Assembly: GCF_028641065.1 (NCBI RefSeq)
Contig: NC_073400.1
Coordinates: forward strand, 23,560,001-23,624,000
Reading direction: 5' to 3'
Source of the DNA: Leucoraja erinacea
Taxonomy: Eukaryota
DNA: 64,000 nt
Below, one piece after another: positions 16,023 through 42,049 of the stretch. Numbering within the stretch: the first letter of the stretch is position 1; every line of letters begins with the position of its first letter. The notes under the pieces were generated by a model. It did no database searches. It worked only from the letters and a program-made list of their open reading frames with translations, and had not been told where the DNA came from. The position numbers and the translations under genes are program-made.

Positions 16023-16452
16023 ATGTTGGTCGAACGGCTCACACGGCAGCTGGGGAAACCCACTCGCAACCTGTGGGGTTGGTTGGTCAAAAGATTTCTT
16101 GAGAGAAACAGATTCTTAGAGGCGAGTGCCGTGAAACTGTGCGACATACAGCCCGAGAATGTGGTTCTGGAGCTGGGCTTCGGTCCGGGGCTGGGGTTGC
16201 AGGAAGCTGCCCGGCGTCTAACACAGCCCGGGGGGAAACTGTACGGGCTGGATATCTCGGAGTACATGTATAATACCGCCAGCGAGCGGCTGCAGGCGGA
16301 CATCCAGTCGGGGAAGGTGACTCTGTTTCTGGGCAGCGTGGAGCAGATCCCTTTGGCGGACAATGCGGTGGACAAGGTTTATCACTGCAACTGTTACTAC
16401 TGGCCTGACCTGCGAGCTGGGAGCAGAGAGATCCACAGGGTGATGAAACCAG
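16023..16452 (+). CDS. Class I SAM-dependent methyltransferase paralog A (Methyltransf_11/UbiE/YdaC-like), exon 1
   Basis: Motifs VLELGFGPG, YGLDIS, IPLADNAVDKVY and EIHRVMKPG; phase-1 donor CAG|GTACAA. Confidence 0.85.
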
Positions 16453-16777
16453 GTACAATGTTTACCGAGTCAGCCGAAAGCCGAGAGATTCCCAGAAGGG
16501 TTGAAGGAAAGCTGGAGAGCAACAGGGGAGATATTGTGCACAAACTGTGTTTCCAAAACACTGATGCATCTAGCTGAATGTCGATTAAACATTTATTACA
16601 AACCACAGTGGCGCAAATGGTAGAGCCACTGCCTGGTAGCACCGAAATCGGGTTCTATCCAGATCTTGAGTGCTGTCTGTGTGGAGTTTGCATATGCTTC
16701 CCGTCACAGAGTGGGTCAGAAGTAGGGTCTCGACCCGAAACATCACCTCTCCATGTTCTCCGGAGATGCTGCCTGAA

Positions 16778-20680: not shown

Positions 20681-21528
20681 GCGCGACTGCCATCATACGG
20701 CACCCCTGGTGGTAGATGCTGCCTGATCCGCTGAGTTACTCCAGCACTTTGTATCTAACTTTGGTATAAACCAGCATCTGCAGTTTTTGTGTCTCTACGT
20801 TTTCCTGTATGGTTCCAGTGTTTACCTTCTGTCCCCACCTACTGCCCAGATCCAGTACAAATGGATGTTATTGCCCATTGATGATACTATCCTGGTATCT
20901 TTTATTTTTAGGACAATTCCTTGATTTCTATTTCCAGATACGAAAATATGATACCCTTTGAATGGTTTGAGGAATCTGATATTACAACAAAAGAACACAA
21001 CACAGTTATGCAAGAAAGAAGGCTGATCACTCTATCCATCAGTCTGAAGAAGGTTTTCGGCCCGAAACGTTACCTATCCCCTTCGCTCCCTAGATGCTGC
21101 TGCACCCGCTGAGTTTCTCCAGCATTTTTGTGTACCTTTGATTTTCCAGCATCTGCAGTTCCTTCTTGAACACTCTATTTAGTCTCTTCCCACACTCTGA
21201 TGTTCCCAGATAGAATAGCTCGGTAATGATCATTCATTTTAATTTAAAAATGAAGATCGTTCATTTGCCATTGTCTGTTGTGCTGTTGCAAGTAAAATAA
21301 TTTCACTATCTGGGACATATGCCAATATGACCGCTGAACTCTTACTACGTTGGAATTTCACTATTTTGGACACATGACAATAAAACACTCTTGACTCTTG
21401 GCGTGTTGTTGTCGGTCGCCACTGGCTTCACTCGTCTCGCATTAACTTCAGTGACAAGACCCCAACCAACGGACTGGCTCCTTTCCGCGTGTAAATCGAA
21501 TTTGGACACATCCCTGCCTTGGGCGTGC

Positions 21529-21731
21529 AGGGGTGGGCGTGGGTCGTATGGCAGGGGTGGGCGTGGGTCGTGCGGCAGGGGTGGGCGTGGGTCGTGCGGC
21601 AAGGGGTGGGCGTGGGGTGGGTCGTGCGGCAGGGGTGGGCGCGGGTCGTGCGGGGCGTGGGTCGTGCGGAAAAGGGTGGGGCGTGGGTCGTGCGGCAAGG
21701 GGTGGGCGTGGGTCGTGCGGCAAGGGGTGGG
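21529..21731 (+). repeat. ~24-bp GC-rich minisatellite (GGGTGGGCGTGGGTCGTGCGGCA), about 8 degenerate units
   Basis: Seen directly, ~70 nt upstream of the paralog B ATG. Confidence 0.9.
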
Positions 21732-21800
21732 CGACTGGGCGTGTGTTGTGCAATTGCAACGTTGGTGTGCTGTGCAACGCTGGTGGCTGAAGTTGGAGAA

Positions 21801-22236
21801 ATGTTCGCTGAGTGGTTCTCGCGACAACTGGCCAAACCTACCCACAGCTTGTTGGGATGGGTGGCGAAAAAGTTATTTGAGAGGAATAACAGATTCCTGG
21901 AGGAGAGTGCCGTGAAACTGTGCGACATACAGCCCGGGAATGTGGTTCTGGAGCTGGGCTTCGGTCCGGGCCTGGGGTTGCAGGAAGCTGCCCGGCGCCT
22001 AACACAGCCCGGGGGGAAACTGTACGGGCTGGATATCTCGGAGTACATGTATAATACCGCCAGCGAGCGGCTGCAGGCGGACATCCAGTCGGGGAAGGTG
22101 ACTCTGTTTCTGGGCAGCGTGGAGCAGATCCCTTTGGCGGACAATGCGGTGGACAAGGTTTATCACTGCAACTGTTACTACTTCTGGCCTGACCTGCGAG
22201 CTGGGAGCAGAGAGATCCACAGGGTGATGAAACCAG
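21801..22236 (+). CDS. Class I SAM-dependent methyltransferase paralog B, exon 1
   Basis: MFAEWFSRQLAKP…VLELGFGPG…CNCYYFWPDL…RVMKPG; same phase-1 donor as paralog A. Confidence 0.85.
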
Positions 22237-22798
22237 GTACAATACTAGATCCGCGTGATCACTGTGTTCATCGACCCGCCACTACCCATCTACGCATCCT
22301 GTTTACTGGGACTTGGACTGGGTGATTCAAATGCTCGTTCAATACCATTACCACAGACTGAGAGTAGACACCTCATGTTACTCAACAACGTACCTCGGTG
22401 ACTGCCAATCCCCCCCCCCCCCCACACTTATTATTATTTATTCAAATCGTTTGCTATGTCGCTCTTCAAGGGAGATGCTAAATGCATTTCGTTGTCTCTG
22501 TACTGTACACTGACAATGACAATTAAATTGAATCTGAATCTGATATGTCAGAGGGTAGTGTCTGTGGAATTCATTGCCACGGAAGGCTGTGGAGACCAAG
22601 CCAATGAATATTTTAAGGCAGATATTGGTCGATTATTGATTAGCACGGGTGTCAGGGGTTATGAGGAGAAGGCAGGAGAACGGGGTTGAGAGGGAAAGAT
22701 AGATAGATCCACCATGATTGAATGACGGCGTAGACTTGATGGGCCGAATGGTCTGCCCAGCTGAGTTACTCCAGCATTTTGTGTCTATTTTCCCTATA

Positions 22799-31130: not shown

Positions 31131-34100
31131 CTTTCTTGCCTCTCTCCATATATATATTTATTCCTTTTTTTTCAAATTTCTGCTGGCACCATTGCATAAT
31201 CATTTTAACACTTCAACCAGTTCTGTAATTATCAGGTGTCGTAGTAGGACACCGTTATCTCTTTGTTCGGTGCTCAATGTCATTGGACCCGGCAGTGGTC
31301 GAGGACAGGCCCGCGGTGGGTGCCAGAGGATAGACGAGGATGTACCGTCAAGAACAAAGAGGAACCCGGCGCCGGCATAATTCATTCATCACACCCTTCA
31401 TTTTAAGTTGGATACCTTTGCCAGAGATTGAGAATTTGATGCACCCATTCCATGTCAGTTTTCACCTACGTGAAGGCGAGATTAAACATATAACCTTGGG
31501 GAAGGTGATACATCAGGAGGAAGGAAAAGAAGACTTGCTTTTATGCAACACTGTACACTACTACATTGTAGAAATCTAGATAACCAATTTGTGCAATGTT
31601 ACCAGCATTTCCTTCTTTGTGGGTTCTATTGGAGTTCTAGGCTACTGCAGTGTGATCCCAAGAATTTTCAATGGCAAGGATAGTAATCAAGTAAATCAAA
31701 GAAAAGTGAGTAACTGATAATTCTGCTGCACACACCGGTGGGATGTCAGTATGATTGATCAATGATGTCAGAGTACCATTGGTTTCAGATCAATATTGTG
31801 ACTGGGTCACTTTAGACAGTGCAAGAAATAGGGTTGTAATTTGAAGAAACAAAGGGAATAACAAAGGGCGAGTTTAGTATCAACAAAAACATAATTTGAA
31901 ACCTATTGTTTTATTCTCTAATAACTGGATACCAGCAACAATCTAAGGAACATTGGAAGACCAGTAATGCAGGTGAGGGTGGTGTCTTGTGAAGGATTAA
32001 ATCTTCTTTCACTACTTGTGTTCACATTGAATTCACTACATTTTTTTCCAATAACACTAAAATAAATTTATTGGGAACTTTTTTGCTTAAAATTATATTA
32101 ACCTGCTACATCACTATGCAAGAGAAGTTACTTTGTCTCATTCAAAATAATTTATTATTCTGGTTTTCGTTTCCTTGTTTTTTATTAATTCACCAGCCAG
32201 CATCTTATGAAGCAGCTTGTTTGTTAACCTCCCTCAGTCTCTGATCCATCCCTAGTTTTTCATCATTTAGGTTTGCCCTAACTCACAATTATGTTACAAA
32301 TATTCACTTGGACTATTTATAAAGCACCACTCGGTCAAGGCATAAATCTTCTGTTCAAAGATGTGAAACATCTGCTGAAGAAAGGAAGCATAGCCTGATA
32401 TTATTTTTTTTATGTGATGTTTGCACCTGCCGCACTCCTGCACTTCATTTTCATGCAGTTGCATGGATATCTACAATCATCATTCCACGACATTCTCAAC
32501 TGAAAGAATATTTCTTTAATTGGAGATTGTTACTGGTGTGTCTTTATAACCTTAGGTACAATGACAATGTGAAGTGTATGTCCTTTGCTCACCTCCTAAT
32601 ATGTTATTTAATGTATCAATATAACCTAAATTACTCAGTACCATGTTGACAAATTTAGTTGCTTCTATGTGATGTAGCAGGAGAAATAATGAACTAGAAT
32701 TTTGCTCCAATTTAAAAGTTTTAGTATTTTAATAATACATTGAAAACATTCCATGCATTAGGAATTTTAACAAACTACAGTATAACAAATTAAATATTTT
32801 CTTGAATTTCCAAGATGACTCGGCCTCTAAAATCTAATTCAAGAACAGTAAACATAATAAACTGCTGAGGTTTTATGCCATGGACAAGATTCCTTCAGCT
32901 TGATGGCAATTTGATCCCTTCACATGGTGGATTACTATCCTTCACAGTTTAAAAAAGCTTTTTTTGTAAAGCAGACAGCAAATTGGAAAGTAAGATATGA
33001 TTGAAAAAGACAGCATGGAAACAAGCCATTTGGCCCACCAAGTCCACACCATTAAGTTTGAACTCTGTTTAGATGAAGTAAGATTCCTTCTCCAGGGAAC
33101 ATTGGTGTGAGGTAAAGCTAAAACATACCTGCTAATTCTCAAAATATCATCTGATCAAAGCATTCATTGGGGTGGGAGATTGCAACCTTCACGTGGTCCA
33201 CCTTGTTTCGACTAATGCAATCAACTTGACGTGCACAATCGAGATCAATTAGAACAAGTTGACCTACAACTTTAGATTGTGCACGCCATAAGCAAGAATA
33301 AGAAAGCATTCATTGAAATGTATTTCACAATAATTTTGGTCCCTCTATAATCCCTCTTATTATAGTTCCATTTCTGTTCATTCCCATAACCTAAGCCAAC
33401 CTTATGCTCATTCATTATGAGTTTACTATTAAGGTTCAACCATTTCGTTTCGTAATTTGAGAATATCATAAACTTCATAAATTGTCATAAACTTCATTTA
33501 ACACAAACCTTTTGTAAGTTAATGTAACCAGACAAGGGGGTTGGCTTAACACGCCCCCCAAACAATTAGTCTCTAAATGTAAGGGAGCTCTGTAACTTTG
33601 GAGCTGCGGTTTAGACAGAGTGCCTTGCCACACAGTATATAATCAGGCAGGAAAGCAGCAGTGATAAATCAGTCAGAACACAACAGCAATTGCAGAAGAA
33701 TCCCAAATTAATCTAGCTAATTTCTAACATTGTAATTTCTTATTCACAGAGCACAATTATTCTTTCAAAATGTATTGGAAAATTGAGTCTGATGTTATTC
33801 ATCCATTAATTTTTTTGTTAAATGGTACTTGCAGTATCCCTGCTGCTCTCATGGCAGATACATTATGCAGTAAAATGATAATCTAATCTGCCGTGTCTGA
33901 ACTTCATACAATGGAAAATGCTGTAAATCCACCTCAACAAAGGAAATACTGACAGGCAAGCTTGGTGTCACGAACTGCAACATTACACATCAGTATAAAT
34001 AATAAGACCAATTATGGCACAACAAAAAGTGCAGGAAGTGTAATGAATATATGATAACTACTACTACTGCCCATAAATGTCACTTGCAACCTGAAATGAT

Positions 34101-34175: not shown

Positions 34176-34337
34176 CTACGTATAAAGCAACTCTTCCAGA
34201 AGCACAATCCCCACTCTGATCACCATCCTCCAAATTGATGGGTGTCTCCGTGGTCGTATTCCAATGACTGGGACTCCAGTCACTGCAAGCAGATCTCTGA
34301 TCATATTGGCGATAAGCATGGCGTTTTCTGGCTGAAT
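34176..34337 (-). CDS. Candidate BH3-only gene, terminal coding exon (IQPENAML…PSIWRMVIRVGIVLLEELLYT*)
   Basis: tctttatattgtggtag acceptor; the phase-0 frame is open for 53 codons, with a basic then hydrophobic C-terminal tail. Confidence 0.55.
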   Translation of the reverse strand: MQPENAMLIANMIRDLLAVTGVPVIGIRPRRHPSIWRMVIRVGIVLLEELLYT

Positions 34338-34642
34338 CTACCACAATATAAAGATACATGGAAAGTTAGTACGTTAAATTGACCAATTCTATTACAGTGT
34401 ATGATTACAAATTTACTAAATAAATGCAAGCTTCAATGTGTTTAGATTCTGTAGAAATATTGTGCTGTGAAAGCCAACACAATGCAATCTAATTACTGGG
34501 CATGAGCATTAGCAAATCATACACTGTAATCCATTGTAATCCATCCTAATTGTATAAAATTCAGTAACCCTTCCCGACCAGTGGTAAACAAAACCCTAAC
34601 AGGTTAATGACCAATGTTGACCAGGAACAAAGTTAACAATAC

Positions 34643-34672
34643 CTGAAGAGTTCCTGCCTCAACAGATGAATG
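34643..34672 (-). CDS. Candidate BH3-only gene, 30-nt exon (HSSVEAGTLQ)
   Basis: ttttctaccgtttttgttaacattag acceptor and CAG|GTATTG donor; phase 0-0. Confidence 0.4.
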
Positions 34673-35587
34673 CTAATGTTAACAAAAACGGTAGAAAATA
34701 TTACAGGAATCAGCATTTGTCAAGAAAGATCCTAATCAACGAAGGGTCTCACCCTGAACACTCTCTCTTCTCCCCTCTCCAATCAGGCAAGATGTACAGA
34801 AGTGTAAAAATGCTCGCCTCCAGATTCAGGGACAGCTTCGTCCCAACTGTTATCAGGCAACTGAACCATCCTATCACCAACTAGAGACCGGAGCTGAGCT
34901 ACTATCTACTTCATTGAAGACTCTCAGACTAAATTTAATCAGACTTTACTAAACTTTAACTTGCACTAAATGTTACTCCCTTTATCCTGTATCTTTACAC
35001 GGTGGACGACTTGATTGTAATAATATATAGTCTTTTCGCTGACCGGATAGCATGCAACAAAAAAGTTTTTCACTGTACCTCTGTACATGTGTCAATAAAC
35101 TAAACTAAGATCCACCTTTACCTATATCTTTGAAAACATAATTATTTAACATTAAAAACTAAAATGATAGAATAAAATGAAGCTGTCAGGCAGTGCATGT
35201 AGAAAGAGAAACAGTTAACCAATTGGGTCTGGGATCCTTCATTAGAATTCTGGCTATCAGAACTGCCAGCACCTTGGCATTTACTGGCATGGATTTAGGA
35301 TTGATTAAAAGACAGTGGACAAAGAGCAGGAATTAACTGGTCACTTTCAACTTGGGAGCCAGTGATCAGTGGGGTCTCATAGGATCAGTGCAAAGACCCT
35401 AGCTGTTCACATCCTGTAGCAATGATTTGGATGAGTTTATCTTCCACATGTTTCTGTCTCTGTGGTGTGGGGTTTTCTTCCATTGGTTTATCACCAGACT
35501 GGTTGGACTAATACATCTCAAACACAATAGAAACATCTGTGCAAACACTAACAGATCCTTAGCATAGCTTTAAAGTCTTAAACTTAC

Positions 35588-35703
35588 AAATTCATTGATG
35601 GCAAGAAGAGTACGCTGGATGAAATGCAGGTTATTGTCAAAATTGTTGTTTAGCTGGTCGCCGATCAGTTGAAGTCTCCTGGCCACAATGGCGTTATCAT
35701 CAC
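35588..35703 (-). CDS. Candidate BH3-only Bcl-2 family gene, BH3 exon (GDDNAIVARRLQLIGDQLNNNF…INEF)
   Basis: catttcctcag acceptor, GTAAGT donor, 116 nt phase 1->0; canonical BH3 pattern h-A-x-x-L-x-x-I-G-D-x-h-N. Confidence 0.7.
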
Positions 35704-36189
35704 CTGAGGAAATGTGAATGCATAAGACCTCATTGAAATGAATGGCTTTTACCCACACATTTCCACTCTTTGTTCAGTTCCCCAGATCTTGTCAGGAATG
35801 AATTTGGCTGACAGAAATACATAAACATGTGTGCAGCATAAGTGGTAACAAGTTTTTTGATTTTTGGATCTTACCCATCTAGCATGCTGTTTAAGGTGAA
35901 CTATCATTTTTGGGCACAAATGTATAGCACTGCTGTCCACATAAGTACATTTTAAGTTGCACAGTAAGATTAAGAGAGTGGCCAGAGACGTAGGTTCTAT
36001 TCTAACTGCGTGTACACGGTGCAATCTAATTACTAGGCATGAGAATTGGCAAACCCTACATTAAAGGAAATAGCCAGATCCATCCTAATTGTATAAAATT
36101 CAGTAATCCTTCCTGACCAGTGGAAAACAAAATCCTAACAGGTTAACGACCAAAGTTGCGCAGAAACATAGTTAACAATACCTGTTATC

Positions 36190-36605
36190 AAAGACTCTAC
36201 TTCCTGTGAAGATGAAGGAGATTCGGTATGTCAATTCCTCGTATGTTGCAAAACGTACTTGGCTAATAAAGTATTATTGTATCATTGTATTGTATTTTAT
36301 GTTGAAGAGGATTCTCTTGAACTTCTCCAGGTGTACAATACAATATTGACTGGTTGCCTCATGGCCTGGTTTGGCAACTTGAATGTCCAGGTACAGAAAA
36401 GATTGCAAAAAGTTGTGAACACTGCCCAGTCCATCACCGGCTCTGACCTCCCCACCATCGAAGGCATTTATCGGAGTCGCTGCCTCAAAAAGGCAGCCAG
36501 CATAATCAGAGACCCACACCATCCTGGCCACACACTCATTTCACCACTGCCATCAGGAAGAAGGTACAGGGGCCTGAAAACTGTAAAGTTCCGATTCAGG
36601 AACAA
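36190..36605 (+). mobile_element. L2/Rex-type LINE 3' fragment (similar pieces at 34740-35105, 43730-44545 minus, 56480-57030 and 60565-61015 minus)
   Basis: QRLYFL…LQKVVNTAQSITG…HPGHTLISPLPSGRRYR. Confidence 0.8.
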
Positions 36606-38371
36606 GCTTTCTCTGGTTGCTCCGGTTTCCTCAAATATTCCAAAGACGTGCAGATTTATAGGTTAAATAGCTTCTGTAAATTGTCCATAGTGTGTAGGAT
36701 AGAACTAGTGCAAGAGTGATTGCTAACTACAGTAAGTGCTGACTAAGTGGGTTTTGGGCCTGTTTCCATGCTGTATCTCTAAAACTGAAAATTTAAAAAC
36801 TGCTGGAGGATCTGAGGATCAGGCAACATCCATAGGGTCTTAATGTATCATTTCAACCGGAAACGTGGACCATCCCTCTGCCTCCACAGATGCTGCTTGA
36901 CCCGTTCCTTCAGGAGTTTGTTTTTTTTCTCCAAATTCCAGCATCTGCTGCCTCTTGCCTCGCCTTTGAGAGGCAGCACTGAATTAAGTTTCAGGATGTG
37001 AAATGAGGAAAGTTGAAAGTACGGATGGGTGACATTGTAGAAACAGTAACCTGTGAGAGCAACCTGTCAAAGACAATTGTATTTAACTGAGAGAATAAGT
37101 AAGCTCACTAAAAAATATGGGATGGCTGAGTTACAGATTTGAAATTGTGCTACAGGATTGCAACAGACATTTCTTCACTGATGAAGAAACATGAAAACAG
37201 GCAACTGAAAAATCTAGACAGCTATGTAAGGCAGCCCAGCAAGGAGAGAGAACTGAATAAAACAATCATGGGATCAATAGACATTAGTTGCATGAGTAGG
37301 CCATTCGGCCCTTCAACCCAACACCGACATTCCATGTGATCATGGTTGATCATCCACAATCAGTACCCCGTTCCTGCCTTCTCCTCATATTGGGTTCAAA
37401 TTGGGCTGGAGGAACAGACGCAGATTTGAATTGATGAAGATGTACACAAAATGCTGGATTAACTCAGCGGGTCAAGCAGCATCTCTGGAGACCCTATCTT
37501 CAAACTGAAAGTCAGGGGAGAGGGAAACTACTAGGGATATGAAAAGGTACAAAGAACAAATGAATGAAATGTAGGACAAGGACAAACCAAAGCCAGACAG
37601 ATGACCAAGGAAAGGTGGAGCCCATAATGGTCCATTGTTGGCTGTGGAAGAGATGATAACGAGTGGATAAAAAAAAGTGAACCCAGTGCAAGACTGCAGT
37701 GAAACGAGTAGGGTTGGGGAGGGGGTGGAGAGAGAGGGAATACAAGGGTTACTGAATTTCCTCTTTTCTAAAGCTGACGGCTGAAGGTGGAGGTTTTGCG
37801 TAATTGAAAGGGGGAATTGGACGAAATACTGGATGGGTTTGTCTCTGTCTCTTGTCTCACGTTTCGAAATACGACTGGACGGCAGGTCCCGTGCGCGCAC
37901 ACGTTTAGACGGTTGGCATCGTGCGCGCACACTTTTAGACGGTTGGCATCGTGCGCGCGGGCGACGTCGGGCCCAGCTGCGGGCGGCGCGCGCAGTTTGT
38001 GATGGGCGCCATTTCGAGCGGAGAGGACGGAGCGCGTGTCAATGGATGACGCTTTAGGCGAGGGAAACAGATTCAGAGCGGTACGATAGTCCGGACATCG
38101 AACAACGTCGTTGTATAGACACGATTACAGACCCAAATGCTGGAGTAACTCAGCGGGCCAGGCAGCATCTCTCGAGAGAAGGAATGGGTGACGTTTCGGG
38201 TCGAGACCCTTCTTCAGATTCGCTGTCTGACCCGCTGAGTTTACTCCAGCATTTTGTGTCTATCTTCTGTGTCAACCAGAATCTGCGGTTCCTTCCTACA
38301 CATTACGTCGGTAATAGACAATATGCTGCGCCGAAAAGAGAGTGTTTTGTGATATTGAAGAAAAAAAAAAT

Positions 38372-38640
38372 CAATTGAAGTATCCTGGCTACAATTGCGT
38401 TCTCATCACCTGAGGAAACGTGAATGTATTAGACCTCATAGAAATGAATGGCTCATTTCCACTCTGGTCATTCCCCCAGTTCTTGTCAGAAAGGAATTAA
38501 CATGATAAAAATATATAAACACATGTGCAGCATAGGTGGTGACAAGTTGTTAATGTTTTGTATCTCACCCATCTACCATCTTACTTCATTTATGGTGAAC
38601 TATAATTTTTAGGCACAAATATATAGCACTGCTGTCCACA
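38372..38640 (-). pseudogene. Truncated duplicate of the BH3 exon and its upstream intron
   Basis: Aligns to ~35666-35940; reads GDENAIVARILQLI and then breaks into a T10 run before the Gly-Asp. Confidence 0.7.
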
Positions 38641-40159
38641 TCTGTAGGTTTTGAGTAAGATCTATCTATGGTGGTACAGTGGTGCAGCGGTAGAGTTGTC
38701 GCCTTACAGGGCCAGAGACCTTGAAAAAACAAAACTGCAGGTGTTGGCAATCTGAAACAAACCCATAAAATGCTGGAAACTCTCAGCAGGTTAGGCAGCA
38801 TCTGAACAAACAGAAACATCAAGTTATTTCTCGTTTCCTGGTTCAATTTCCACAGATGTTGACCTGCAGGGTGTTTTTCCCGCATTGTGGGATTGGCCTC
38901 AGTATGGAACACTTGCACCAGGAAGAGTTTATCATTGAAATTGTAGGCGATGCACAAATAATAGCAATACATTGCATTTTATTGATTGCAGATCTTAGGT
39001 GCACAAGCACTGTGTGACTATTAGTAGAAACAAAAGACCCTTGAGTCCCTGAGCCTGCTCCCCTGGACAACTGGATTGTGGCTAATGGGACATTCACGTT
39101 CATTTTTTTGTCCTTTCACCATAAAACCTAATTTCATTTCACATTGAAAATCTATCTCAGCCTTAAATAATTGTGACATAATTGTGCCCTTACAGCCTCA
39201 TGTCAAGGAGTTCTAAAATCAAATTTTCAGAGAAAACAAATGATTTACCAATTCAGAGAGTGCTCTCTAGTGCTTGACTGTCCCATGAGAGGAAACAAGC
39301 TCGCAGTAGGATCTGGTTCCCCCAAGACTCTTACTTCAATAAAATTGCCTCTCTTCTTACCTGTTCCGCCTTTCCTTGTAGAATTATCCCTTCACAAACT
39401 TGATCATCCAAAGAAACTGTCTCAAAACTGCCACCAATTAAATAATATAATTCCTTAAAAAAGTGGGATCAAACCTGTTTGCAGTGCTTTAGATGTGGTC
39501 TCCCTAGTACCTTACAGCAGTTGGACTTTGCCAGTGAACTAATTGTGGCATTTGTGGAGTATAAAATCCATACGAGGTTGTGTTCAGAGAGATGAAATTA
39601 AATTGGGGCTTCAGTTTAAAATCCCAATACTATGAAATGTAAAATTCACCCTTCTAAGCTTAAAAACAAGTAATTTGTCCTGTTTATCCGCAGTTAGTGA
39701 GTTCATGAATCAATTCAAGAACAAAACACAGGGATCACCATAAATATATTCAATATTGAAATATAGTGCATGGATAACAGCATTGTGTGCATTGTCACAT
39801 AGGGATCAGTGTTCCCTTCTATTACAATAGATTTTAGGGCTTTCACATCCACCTGAACTTTTGGAACAGTTGGAAATAGAATTATTGATGAAAGGCAGCA
39901 AATTCCACAGTATAAGATAAAATTCAACATATTAATATTGGACAATAACCTGCATCCTCTGTTATTATCATTTTTATCTACCCCACTATAAGTGTCCAGA
40001 TTTGTTGATCTCTGCACCTCCAAGATGTGGAATCAAGCAGATACTCTCATGTGATATTTTGCTATGTTTTATGAGTGATTACTATATTGACACGTGAAAA
40101 TAAATTCCCCAGAGTGCTGAACCATGCAAGAGGATTTCTCTAATATTTTTGTTACTTAC

Positions 40160-40210
40160 CAAGCACAATTTCTGAAGACATTATTTTCAGATTTCTGTCT
40201 TGTTTTACAT
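40160..40210 (-). CDS. Candidate BH3-only gene, 51-nt exon (DVKQDRNLKIMSSEIVL); a 12-nt version is also in frame
   Basis: Strong GTAAGT donor, phase 1-1; the acceptor is a weaker AAG. Confidence 0.3.
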
Positions 40211-40491
40211 CTTAGTGATGACAGGATCACAGAACTGAACACTTATATTGTGGTAGATGTGAAGAAGCATCTACTCTTGAATATTATTGATAATTATTAT
40301 AATCGATTAGTTATTTTGAGGTGTTTCTTCCGTGTTAAATACAATTCAGTATAAATGTTTTTCTTGATGACCAATGGTCACCATTACCCCTATGACTTTT
40401 TTCATTATGTAAATCAAAATGTATGAAGTGGTTTTCACTATTAAATAACTATTGGTTTAGGATGATTCAAATAACACATTTTGTTGCTCAC

Positions 40492-40551
40492 CTGATGCCA
40501 TGGTCTTGCACTTGGCAAATCTTGTTATTTTCAGACTCTTAAAGCGGAAAT
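40492..40551 (-). CDS. Candidate BH3-only gene, 60-nt exon (DFRFKSLKITRFAKCKTMAS)
   Basis: ttcttcag acceptor and CAG|GTGAGC donor; phase 1-1; contains an in-frame accATGG. Confidence 0.45.
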
Positions 40552-40806
40552 CTGAAGAATCTCATGTAGTGTTTGATAACTTTTATATCTTGGGAACCTT
40601 TCCTGTAATTTTCCTTCAGTTTTGTTTCTAATGACTTTAGGAAACAAAAGCCAAAATAGACAGATATATGGCAAGTTTTTGACAAGCTAGAACATGCCCG
40701 GACAATGATGTTTTGGGTTTTCCACATCCACCTGCCTGGGAAGTGATATTTAATTGCCAGCAATCGATTGGATACAAAACTTGTTACAATCACAGTGAAT
40801 GCTCAC

Positions 40807-40831
40807 CATAAGCAGTTTCCATTTCTGACAT
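40807..40831 (-). CDS. Candidate BH3-only gene, first coding exon (MSEMETAY)
   Basis: acaATG start; G|GTGAGC phase-1 donor compatible with the downstream exons. Confidence 0.4.
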
Positions 40832-42049
40832 TGTTTCTCCTCCAGTTTCAGGACTGATGAGTAAAGGATTTTCAGTGTCAGCTTATAAAGGTGCCTCTCT
40901 CTCTTGTGGGGATTTCAAATCGATACATGACACGTTGAAACTTGCGTGTAGGGAAGTCAACAAGTTTGTCTAATCAAAGCATCAACTGATAAGTTTTTAC
41001 TCTTAAATAGGGCCTTATGTTTTCAATCATCGATGCTGTTTATTCTTCTTTATTTAGTGCATTTATTTGATCTCCATCCTTTCCAGTGCAGAACTAAATA
41101 GAGATGCCTCACACTTGTGTCTAACAATGTTAACTGGTCACTGAGGCACACTAACATATTTTGTCTTGATTTTGTGTTGCATCTGAACAATACTTCCCCT
41201 CTTCAGCAGTAAGTTGTATGTTTCATAGTTTTATGTTCTATACATTCATATTAGAAATATTTAAAGTGGAGAAAATCTAAAATAATGGAAATCCTTTCTT
41301 AAAGTTGATGTTTCTTTAGTATGTGTTTGGGCATAAAGGTACTGTGACTGAACCTGCAGCCAGAATTTTGGACCATTAAACCAGAGGCATAGATCTGAAT
41401 TTTGACACAGCAGACAACTCGTTAAATCTGCAATTAAAAAAGATGTCTGGATTCAAATTTTTAGTTTAGTTTAGTTTTGGGATACAGTGTGGAAAGAGGC
41501 CCTTCAGCCCACCGGGTGCGCGCCAACCAGCGATCCCCACATATTAACACTATCCTACACCCACTAGGGACATTTTTTACATTTACCAAGCCAATTTACC
41601 TACAAACCTGTACGCCTTTGGAGTGTGAGAGGAAACCGAAGATCTCGGAGAAAACCCATGCAGGTCACGGGGAGAACGTACCAACTCCCTACAGACAGCA
41701 CCTGTAGTTGGGATCGAACCCGGGTCTCCGTCGCTGTATTCGCTGTAAGGCAGCGACTCTACCGCTGCGCCACCGTGACCACAAATTGTGTTAACTATGA
41801 AACTAGCAGATTGTCATTCAAAGCTCATCTTTTTATTTAATTTAATTCATGGAATGAAACTCAACGTTCTTTCCTGATCTGGGCCAAATATGATTCCAGA
41901 CCCACCAAAGTGGTTATATGACCCACCAAAGTGGGTATATGACTGTTCGGTTCCGAAGCACTTAGGAATAGGCAGTAAATATCAGTGAACTCCCATTGAC
42001 TACATGCTGTCTCGGCAAGGTCCCCAGCATAATCAAGGATCAATCAATC

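Follow-up and report, generated by a model that had tools for sequence, protein, structure and literature searches.

A BH3-bearing open reading frame, intact and unannotated, in the skate Leucoraja erinacea, likely a shortened gene of the BID/BFK lineage

Whether BH3-only genes originated by exon loss from folded Bcl-2 proteins or by convergence is a question raised in PMC10244440 and PMC8998228. Among the closest described proteins is PXT1, a small mammalian BH3-only protein found only in the testis, which binds pro-survival proteins and activates BAK (as described in PMC10298792, PMC3093327 and bioRxiv 2022.05.07.491048). Another is BFK (BCL2L15), for which PMC8814693 gives the helix-5 residues as Arg110, Leu113, Val115, Val117, Leu119 and Leu120, and the helix-5 register of BFK and BID as R-x-x-aliphatic...L-L.

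We analysed a 64,000-nt stretch of the Leucoraja erinacea genome (henceforth the window; contig NC_073400.1, positions 23,560,001 to 23,624,000, forward strand), in which a sequence-only reading had joined six phase-compatible minus-strand exons into an open reading frame of 147 aa. The exon coordinates were verified, each internal junction has AG before and GT after it, and splicing in silico yields 444 nt, i.e., 147 codons plus TAG. The parts of the locus are as follows.

40883..40887, minus strand: TATAA, 56 nt upstream of the first ATG; possibly the core promoter
40807..40831, minus strand: exon 1, coding part, starting with ATG and ending in phase 1; donor rank 6 of 528
40492..40551, minus strand: exon 2, 60 nt, phase 1-1, skippable; donor rank 2 of 528
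40160..40210, minus strand: exon 3, 51 nt, phase 1-1, skippable; weak AAG acceptor
35588..35703, minus strand: exon 4, 116 nt, phase 1-0, with the BH3 helix and 21 more codons; BID-type geometry
35648..35686, minus strand: BH3 core VARRLQLIGDQLN, from a strict pattern match and a groove model
34643..34672, minus strand: exon 5, 30 nt, phase 0-0, skippable; the exon with least support
34176..34337, minus strand: exon 6, coding part, 53 aa plus TAG (stop at 34176-34178)
34182..34241, minus strand: last helix, a basic lead-in followed by an aliphatic run
32181..32733, minus strand: first poly(A)-type hexamers past the stop (ATTAAA at 32733, AATAAA at 32186); putative 3' end

Given the symmetry of exons 2, 3 and 5, any of which may be left out with the frame kept, continuity of the frame is no proof of these exons. 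On a home-made matrix applied to 9 kb, donors 1-3 rank 6, 2 and 4 among 528 GT sites, while acceptors 2, 3 and 5 rank only 88, 126 and 75 among 539. Another in-frame ATG in exon 2 (40499-40501, ACCATGG context) would give a protein of 122 aa if used. When exons 1-3 were compared with one another, similarity scores were too low for a claim of duplication, and a search of the skate's own genome found no paralogues of exon 4, exon 6 or the 5' exons.

Compared with the BH3 consensus as given in PMC3093327, the core deviates only at the acidic position following Gly-Asp, where it has Gln; the agreement at four hydrophobic positions plus Gly-Asp noted in the sequence-only reading stands. At the deviating position Gln is also found in BFK and BNIP5, and Asn in PXT1. 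Neither NWGR (BH1) nor GGW (BH2) occurs in the 147-codon frame, as had been noticed before. A strict BH3 pattern, composed with the motif already known, gave five matches in 864 kb chosen around Bcl-2 genes (the candidate, BID, a BID-like gene, BAK1 and a BAK-like gene), compared with a chance level of 0.2 per 864 kb in 10 shuffles. Because four of the five strict matches fall in known Bcl-2-family genes and only 0.2 were expected, the motif, judged as a sequence pattern, is not a product of chance. One could still suppose that motif and exon chain are an accidental arrangement in non-coding DNA, seeing that short exons chain easily and that neither expression nor a homologue was found. We consider this very improbable in view of the low chance level, of a motif exon with a strong acceptor, BID phases and almost BID length, and of an Atlas recognition of 3131, which was reached by 9 of 100 shuffled proteins. 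Scored singly, exons 4 and 6 matched no Pfam family; the BH3 exon of the skate BID-like gene has no Pfam match either.

When the BH3 was modelled together with a skate BCL-XL-like protein, its fit in the groove scored 0.72 (best control 0.01), with runs sharing at least 80% of contacts and a partner pLDDT of 63. In this model Asp16 contacts the Arg of NWGR, and Leu, Ile, Gly and Asp occupy the textbook pockets. Among solved pairs, 51 of 78 microbial and 71 of 105 eukaryotic ones reached the mark used for such complexes; among mismatched pairs, 2 of 108 and 2 of 126 did, respectively. This calibration was made up of pairs other than peptides. The BH3 helix is predicted on this basis to bind a BCL-XL-type groove, and the score of 0.72 may have passed through likeness to solved BH3 complexes.

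The architecture of the BH3 exon points to BID. Exon 4 runs 29 nt ahead of the conserved Leu and 63 nt past the last hydrophobic codon in phase 1-0; the corresponding figures are 26/69 nt in skate BID and 32/69 nt in its BID-like neighbour, both again in phase 1-0. By contrast, only 24, 24 and 21 nt follow the last hydrophobic codon in BIM, BAD and BMF, respectively, and the BH3 exon of BAK1 has phase 2-2. In phase and length exon 4 is therefore of the BID and BID-like type, unlike BIM, BMF, BAD and BAK, and kinship with BIM and BMF, the tails of which the sequence-only reading had likened to that of the candidate, is not supported. A BH3 exon in phase 1-0 that carries helices 2-3 characterises the BID/BFK lineage, human BFK included. 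The BFK peptide is also the closest BH3, with 10 of 21 residues identical between the human protein and the candidate (counted by eye), and among nine weak matches in a PDB search BFK was the sole one outside BAK and had the longest match (PDB 7ccl). A motif scan for a BFK-like gene was empty over 200 kb around skate AP4B1/DCLRE1B, the neighbours of BFK in human; PTPN22 was not seen in that stretch.

The family members against which the candidate might be confused have loci of their own: skate BID lies at C19:1.916-1.923 Mb, BIM at C1405, BMF at C9, BAD at C545 and NOXA at C1. Identity with any of BIM, BMF, BAD, NOXA, BID, BAK1 or BAX is excluded in this way, and the frame was not found in protein collections, in support of the earlier statement that no known gene could be assigned. 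The BID-like gene is at C24:23.67-23.70 Mb, on the same strand and chromosome arm as the candidate and 72-100 kb from it; both this neighbour and the mammalian PXT1 gene beside ETV7 had been overlooked by the sequence-only reading.

An alternative affiliation would make the candidate a disordered BH3-only gene of the BIM/BMF/PUMA/BIK type, either, as in the sequence-only reading, an additional copy from genome duplication that mammals have lost, or else the PUMA or BIK gene missing from the skate. Its tail may resemble that of PUMA, and Atlas places exon 4 nearest the BIM/NOXA/PUMA peptide clusters (0.84, a lead only). The BIK and PUMA Pfam models found no convincing locus in the whole skate genome, their reach into cartilaginous fish being uncertain, and PMC8998228 lists only Bim, Bmf and Bid in Chondrichthyes. 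The exon geometry, however, is unlike that of skate BIM, BMF and BAD, the same Pfam models (PF12201 and PF15826 for BIK and PUMA, respectively) miss exons 4 and 6, and no sister gene emerged where one was sought. Specifically, motif scans of 400 kb around ETV6, for BCL-G or a sister gene, and of 130 kb beside MCAT/TSPO, for BIK, were empty (TTLL1 was not seen in the latter stretch), so that the proposed ohnology with the BIK/BCL2L14 regions gained no support. We regard this affiliation as improbable.

Beyond the BH3 exon, the frame departs from a complete Bcl-2 fold. Helices 6-8 and BH2 of the BID/BFK fold are missing, with the stop at 34176-34178 and read-through beyond it leaving no significant remnant, and the candidate is therefore not a full-length BID or BFK. 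A pseudo-BH4 first helix is not in the 147-aa frame, and a pattern for it had no match in the 11 kb upstream, a pattern that also missed this helix upstream of BID and the BID-like gene. Exon 6 was modelled as two helices (residues 3-20 and 33-52), with which a fold search found no match. It fits the helix-5 register of BFK and BID, and the resemblance of its last helix to helix 5 is suggestive only: homology of helices 4-5 to BID/BFK was not significant (hhalign E 0.23; profile p 0.39 and 0.43; global p 0.17 vs BID), and the one test to fall lower, over 12 residues and selected after looking, gave p 0.019. The last helix has a mean hydropathy of 1.7 over 15 residues, with two Glu within it and no basic residues after it, and may serve as a membrane anchor.

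Taken together, we favour the reading that this intact, unannotated frame with a BH3 death motif is a shortened gene of the BID/BFK lineage that encodes a predicted pro-apoptotic BH3-only protein, which we hold to be likely at a probability of about 0.5. Exon 4 would then correspond to helices 2-3 and exon 6 to helices 4-5 of a BID-like fold that breaks off past helix 5. Without the helix by which BID and BFK are held folded shut, such a protein would not depend on caspase cleavage and would be comparable to a ready-made tBID; its last helix would target it to membranes, and its BH3 would neutralise pro-survival proteins or activate BAK/BAX. Control would lie with transcription, the protein acting in a tissue outside those sampled, which fits the silence of the gene in most samples.

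That silence is also an argument for a different reading, in which the candidate is a recently silenced BFK/BID-like pseudogene, truncated by the exon 6 stop and with splicing open to diversion by the acceptor of a tandem copy. All three RNA runs mapped (of unlabelled tissues, among 12 raw-read runs) gave no transcripts and near-zero depth over the gene: depth was 0 to 0.44 in repeat-free bins with exons 1-3 and 6 and 12 to 91 in the last exon of MRPL16. None of the best 15 of 12,644 splice joints in these runs joins exons of the candidate, and its junctions have no spliced read in support. In favour of a shortened, working BID/BFK-lineage gene, on the other hand, the locus is present in a relative diverged by about 4% (run X6). 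Protein searches, in a collection that includes shark, ray and skate proteins, found no homologue and hence no annotated protein in relatives, neither with exon 4 alone (0 of 2 candidates, proteins of 71-2000 aa) nor with exon 6 alone (0 of 192, 94-2000 aa); an Atlas search with exon 6 found no relative, and 0 of 600 metagenome stretches were confirmed. Searches and folding were done by single exon, so sensitivity was lower than for a whole protein. The sole match among 1.84 billion representatives, a 2098-aa Lys/Ser/Asn-rich protein with 19 stretches, was rejected as a low-complexity artefact.

A decayed duplicate of the cassette lies upstream of exon 4, and is absent from the sequence-only reading:

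36014..38656, minus strand: decayed head-to-tail cassette copy, from the last part of intron 3 into the first part of intron 5, with repeats in place of its middle
38370..38409, minus strand: half BH3 exon of that copy, with a strong acceptor retained, ending before Gly-Asp

The copy retains 79% identity to the intact cassette over 299 nt and 83% over 175 nt. Its acceptor scores equal to that of exon 4, and its use would bring in a stop ahead of Gly-Asp, a point in favour of a pseudogene. The half exon shows 5 differences from exon 4 in 12 codons, and 3 of these differences are synonymous (p 0.09), which argues the other way. The same holds for the splice dinucleotides, the frame and the key BH3 residues, all of them intact; in a simulation of neutral decay all six exons survived in 1.3% of runs and exons 4 and 6 in 13%, odds against decay that are overstated since the exons were chosen to fit; the tandem copy, for its part, did decay. 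As for truncation, when the read-through frame is aligned globally with BID, the best alignment stays colinear up to the exon end, but at p 0.13 to 0.98, depending on the setting, the likeness fails to reach significance (p 0.21 for the tail alone; hhalign E 0.3), the read-through has no PDB match, and its tail is modelled as low-confidence strands. A decayed BH2 region past the stop, proposed by eye, was dropped when alignments lacked significance. Overall, we judge a pseudogene unlikely.

The neighbourhood raises a further alternative, namely that the candidate is the cartilaginous-fish orthologue of PXT1, with the same action, and so an old member of a named family that was not lost in mammals. 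The skate order is a PNPLA1-type gene (plus strand), an ETV7-type gene (minus strand), two methyltransferase genes and the candidate (minus strand); the dog order is PNPLA1, C6orf222, ETV7, PXT1, KCTD20. The candidate thus sits 5' of ETV7 in the PNPLA1-ETV7 block, as mammalian PXT1 does, with two methyltransferase genes in between. Since a BH3-only protein holds the position beside mammalian ETV7, the earlier suggestion of a gene lost in mammals is unproven. No further BH3 candidate turned up in the interval from PNPLA1 to ETV7 or in the 88 kb lying 5' of KCTD20, a testis-only expression like that of PXT1, a peroxisomal protein, would account for the RNA silence, and the last helix may resemble the PXT1 tail. 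On the other hand, in the skate KCTD20-STK38 flanks ETV7 on the opposite side, meaning the block has been rearranged, and the BH3 is identical to that of human PXT1 at only 5 of 21 positions (by eye), compared with 10 of 21 for BFK. The PXT1 Pfam model (PF15214) matches neither exon 4 nor exon 6 when these are scored singly, and the locus is not among the five weak matches listed from its genome search (25 candidates). A model search for BNIP5/CF222 gave no match. Moreover, the PXT1 BH3 exon ends about 7 codons past the motif instead of 21. We likewise judge orthology with PXT1 unlikely.

A combination of the two lineages is a similarly tentative idea: the candidate could be a living intermediate, derived from a folded BID/BFK-type protein by loss of the helices at either end, and at the same time the form from which mammalian PXT1 descends. 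If so, PXT1 would be a descendant of the Bcl-2 fold as old as jawed vertebrates, rather than a protein that acquired a BH3-like motif. Since the locus combines a BH3 like that of BFK, an exon of BID type and the position held by PXT1, orthologues from a few genomes would make the question of origin testable, and the gene would extend the set of cartilaginous-fish BH3 genes, which PMC8998228 gives as Bim, Bmf and Bid. If silent, it would be a minor relic.

Set against known systems, the shortened BID/BFK-lineage gene that we favour shares features with several of them. With human BFK it has in common the absence of BH1 and a match to the helix-5 register, in which a basic residue leads into an aliphatic run; BFK, however, includes a pseudo-BH4 first helix along with a caspase site and BH2, whereas the candidate frame is without the first helix and BH2 and, unlike BFK, ends after the helix-5-like stretch. 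BID and the BID-like gene each retain an exon of 74-75 aa with GGW at its end and score 47 and 29.6 bits with the Pfam BID model, the candidate showing neither, and its BH3 is identical to theirs at 6 of 18 and 4 of 18 positions, respectively. Like the candidate, BIM, BMF, BAD and NOXA have a single BH3 and no other BH motif, and BIM, BMF and BAD a phase-0 intron after the BH3 exon, but that intron lies 7-8 codons past the motif compared with 21 in the candidate. The stretch between BH3 and tail differs by about 50 residues between PXT1 and the candidate, the candidate being longer. Finally, PXT1 and the candidate are both BH3-only, similar in size and located beside ETV7, and the same mechanism is proposed for the candidate.

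All six exons of the candidate BH3-only gene (minus strand, window 34176..40831), their splice dinucleotides and the 147-codon frame were reproduced exactly as the sequence-only reading had claimed. Its BH3 motif (core 35648-35686) also held: a strict pattern, composed with this motif in view, matched five times in 864 kb of DNA chosen around Bcl-2 genes (the candidate, BID, a BID-like gene, BAK1 and a BAK-like gene), where shuffles gave 0.2, with zero junk matches. Scored with a home-made matrix, donors 1-3 ranked within the top six of 528 GT sites in 9 kb and acceptors 2, 3 and 5 were mediocre, while the frame survives the skipping of exons 2, 3 and 5; therefore exons 4 (35588..35703) and 6 (34176..34337) are the firm core and exon 5 is the weakest. 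A TATAA lies 56 nt upstream of the first ATG, and a second ATG inside exon 2 has a better context than the first.

The skate genome has separate loci for BIM, BMF, BAD, NOXA, BID, BAK1 and BAX, and exon geometry is the clearest signal of the candidate's kinship. Specifically, its BH3 exon has 29 nt ahead of the conserved Leu and 63 nt past the last hydrophobic codon (phase 1-0), compared with 26/69 nt in skate BID and 32/69 nt in the BID-like gene (both phase 1-0). By contrast, BIM, BAD and BMF have 24, 24 and 21 nt past that codon, and BAK1 has 25/95 nt with phase 2-2. The earlier proposal of an unrecognised BH3-only gene thus stands as regards a BH3 gene distinct from the BIM, BMF, BAD, NOXA and BID loci, but its likening to BIM and BMF does not, as the exon geometry differs. 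By-eye counts on published peptides put the BH3 of human BFK (BCL2L15; PMC8814693) closest, with 10 of 21 residues identical, against 5/21 for PXT1 and 4/21 for BNIP5 (C6orf222; both PMC4072508 supplement); over 18 positions, skate BAK1 shares 7, BID 6 and the BID-like gene 4. A PDB search gave nine weak matches (E 0.47-1.7), eight to BAK and one to BFK. We put the chance that the candidate is a shortened BH3-only gene of the BID/BFK lineage at roughly one in two.

Exon 6 (53 aa and stop) was modelled as two helices (pLDDT 74), the second fitting the BFK/BID helix-5 register (shuffle p 0.006, for a pattern picked after looking); a 12-residue helix-5 test, likewise picked after looking, gave p 0.019 (27 of 7,650 background windows). 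Neither hhalign (E 0.23) nor profile tests (p 0.39 and 0.43) were significant for exon 6, and global alignment gave p 0.17 for BID, 0.57 for the BID-like gene and 0.028 for BCL2L13. The assignment of exon 6 to helices 4-5 is suggestive. A decayed BH2 region sought past its stop was unsupported. Since the exon 6 tests free of bias were not significant and no BH2 remnant was supported, descent from the BID/BFK lineage rests on exon 4.

Several other Bcl-2-family features were seen. The BID-like gene pairs a BH3 exon with a 75-aa exon whose last residues are GGW, shares 34% identity with skate BID, scores 29.6 bits against Pfam BID and is possibly a BID ohnolog or BFK orthologue. In skate BID, the exon coding for helices 4-8 (C19:1922542-1922763) also ends in a BH2-like GGW, a motif which we take to be absent from human BID. 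A second BAK-like gene (C19:4117856-4119348) combines a good BH3 with NWRQ for NWGR and shows no clear donor past its BH3 exon; it may be a BAK paralogue that has diverged or is decaying. A 211-aa open frame (C1:26180185-26180820, minus) matches Bcl-2 weakly (E 0.004) and reads QPGR where BH1 would lie. BAD-like (contig C545) and NOXA-like (C1) loci are present, though PMC8998228 names no Chondrichthyes BH3 genes beyond Bim, Bmf and Bid; searches of the whole 2.19-Gb skate genome with PUMA and BIK models gave no convincing match.

The gene order is as follows, with neighbours provisionally named from Pfam matches combined with characteristic motifs (PNPLA1-type from a scan of 150 of 212 chosen frames).

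Gene order around the candidate on contig C24
23.35 Mb, plus: KCTD20-type
23.38 Mb, minus: STK38-type
23.45 Mb, minus: mitochondrial carrier
23.50 Mb, plus: PNPLA1-type
23.539 Mb (ETS) and 23.556 Mb (pointed domain), minus: ETV7-type
window 16023-16577 and 21495-22325, plus: two near-identical tandem class I methyltransferase genes, between ETV7 and the candidate
window 34176..40831, minus: candidate, between the methyltransferases and MRPL16
beyond the candidate, plus: MRPL16 (its last exon, inside the window, shares 96% identity with the protein of Amblyraja radiata and 89% with that of Pristis, which marks the source as a skate)
beyond MRPL16, plus: ADIPOR1-type
beyond ADIPOR1-type, plus: KLHL12-type
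23.67-23.70 Mb (23672638-23672862 and 23700505-23700629), minus: BID-like gene

Motif scans at sites chosen from what we take to be the human neighbourhoods detected no BFK-like gene in 200 kb at AP4B1/DCLRE1B and, in the 400 kb surrounding ETV6 and 130 kb beside MCAT/TSPO, nothing with a BH3. Two frames between AP4B1 and DCLRE1B (C24:7173924, plus; 7188558, minus) presumably resemble fish actinoporin-like proteins.

A table row in PMC9744541 gives the dog order as PNPLA1, C6orf222, ETV7, PXT1, KCTD20. PXT1 is described as a BH3-only protein of the testis, and is reported to bind each of the five pro-survival proteins and to activate BAK (PMC10298792, PMC3093327, bioRxiv 2022.05.07.491048). 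With respect to PNPLA1-ETV7 the candidate sits where PXT1 does, and neither the interval from PNPLA1 to ETV7 nor the stretch 5' of KCTD20 yielded a second BH3 candidate in skate; however, the low BH3 identity, the lack of a match to the PXT1 Pfam model (PF15214) and the rearranged gene block make orthology to PXT1 unlikely. Given this conflict and the empty scans, the candidate could be a BFK cut short, an early form of PXT1, or the member of a third lineage. Full-text searches of non-subscription literature, judged mostly by titles and abstract openings, turned up no published description of it (texts on the topic include PMC10244440 and bioRxiv 2022.07.24.499430), and genome-browser annotation may already hold a non-coding or uncharacterised model there.

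The sequence-only reading missed a head-to-tail duplication of the cassette that reaches from the last part of intron 3 into the beginning of intron 5. In the upstream copy (36014-38656) the BH3 exon is cut off ahead of the Gly-Asp, and repeats fill the middle of the copy; a 30-nt tandem repeat (2.3 copies, 37890-37958) lies within a CpG-rich insert there. Between the copies, 39 of 222 intron positions differ, as do five positions over 12 codons, three of them synonymous (p 0.09). Neutral simulation with half the inter-copy divergence left all six exons intact in 1.3% of runs and exons 4 and 6 in 13%, which favours selection on the intact copy, although its exons had been picked to fit. The dead copy retains an acceptor as strong as that of exon 4, which could divert splicing.

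RNA was drawn from three of 12 raw-read runs, each from a different study and sampled at 5, 6 and 25% (tissues unlabelled). The proposed splicing found no counterpart among the joints listed: none of these 15, from a repeat-dominated total of 12,644, joined candidate exons. Depths in the repeat-free bins that hold exons 1-3 and 6 were 0 to 0.44 per direction, against summed depths of 91, 12 and 16 for the MRPL16 last exon. Single-exon queries (39-53 aa) found no protein relatives in collections including shark, ray and skate proteins. The contigs of a relative span the stretches with exons 1-3, 4 and 6, and across these whole stretches differed at 93 of 2,650, 36 of 875 and 48 of 1,148 letters respectively. 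The lack of transcripts and relatives fits narrow expression or recent loss alike. A recent pseudogene and PXT1 orthology are the chief rivals of the BID/BFK reading, and we regard each as unlikely.

A 156-aa skate exon, called BCL-XL-like on the strength of its sequence, served as the modelling partner for exon 4. The complex scored 0.72 against 0.01 for the best of three controls, with contact agreement of at least 80% between runs and a partner pLDDT of 63; Leu11, Ile14, Gly15 and Asp16 lay inside the modelled groove, Asp16 contacting the NWGR Arg. In calibration on microbial pairs, 51 of 78 solved ones and 2 of 108 mismatched ones attained the score mark. Because many BH3 complexes are already solved, the modelled pass indicates likeness to these rather than binding. 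PMC9171138 cautions that BH3 patterns are poor predictors and that some BH3s, that of BFK among them, were judged non-functional.

The frame, motif and exon layout of the candidate are established, and its BH3 is predicted by the model to bind the groove. In BID and BFK, according to PMC8814693, the first helix keeps the protein shut until caspase cleavage, after which helix 5 enters the membrane. By contrast, the candidate frame has no first helix of this type and terminates with a helix-5-like stretch. Membrane targeting, killing and tissue restriction would then be expected, and the candidate could be a ready-made tBID-like protein under transcriptional control.
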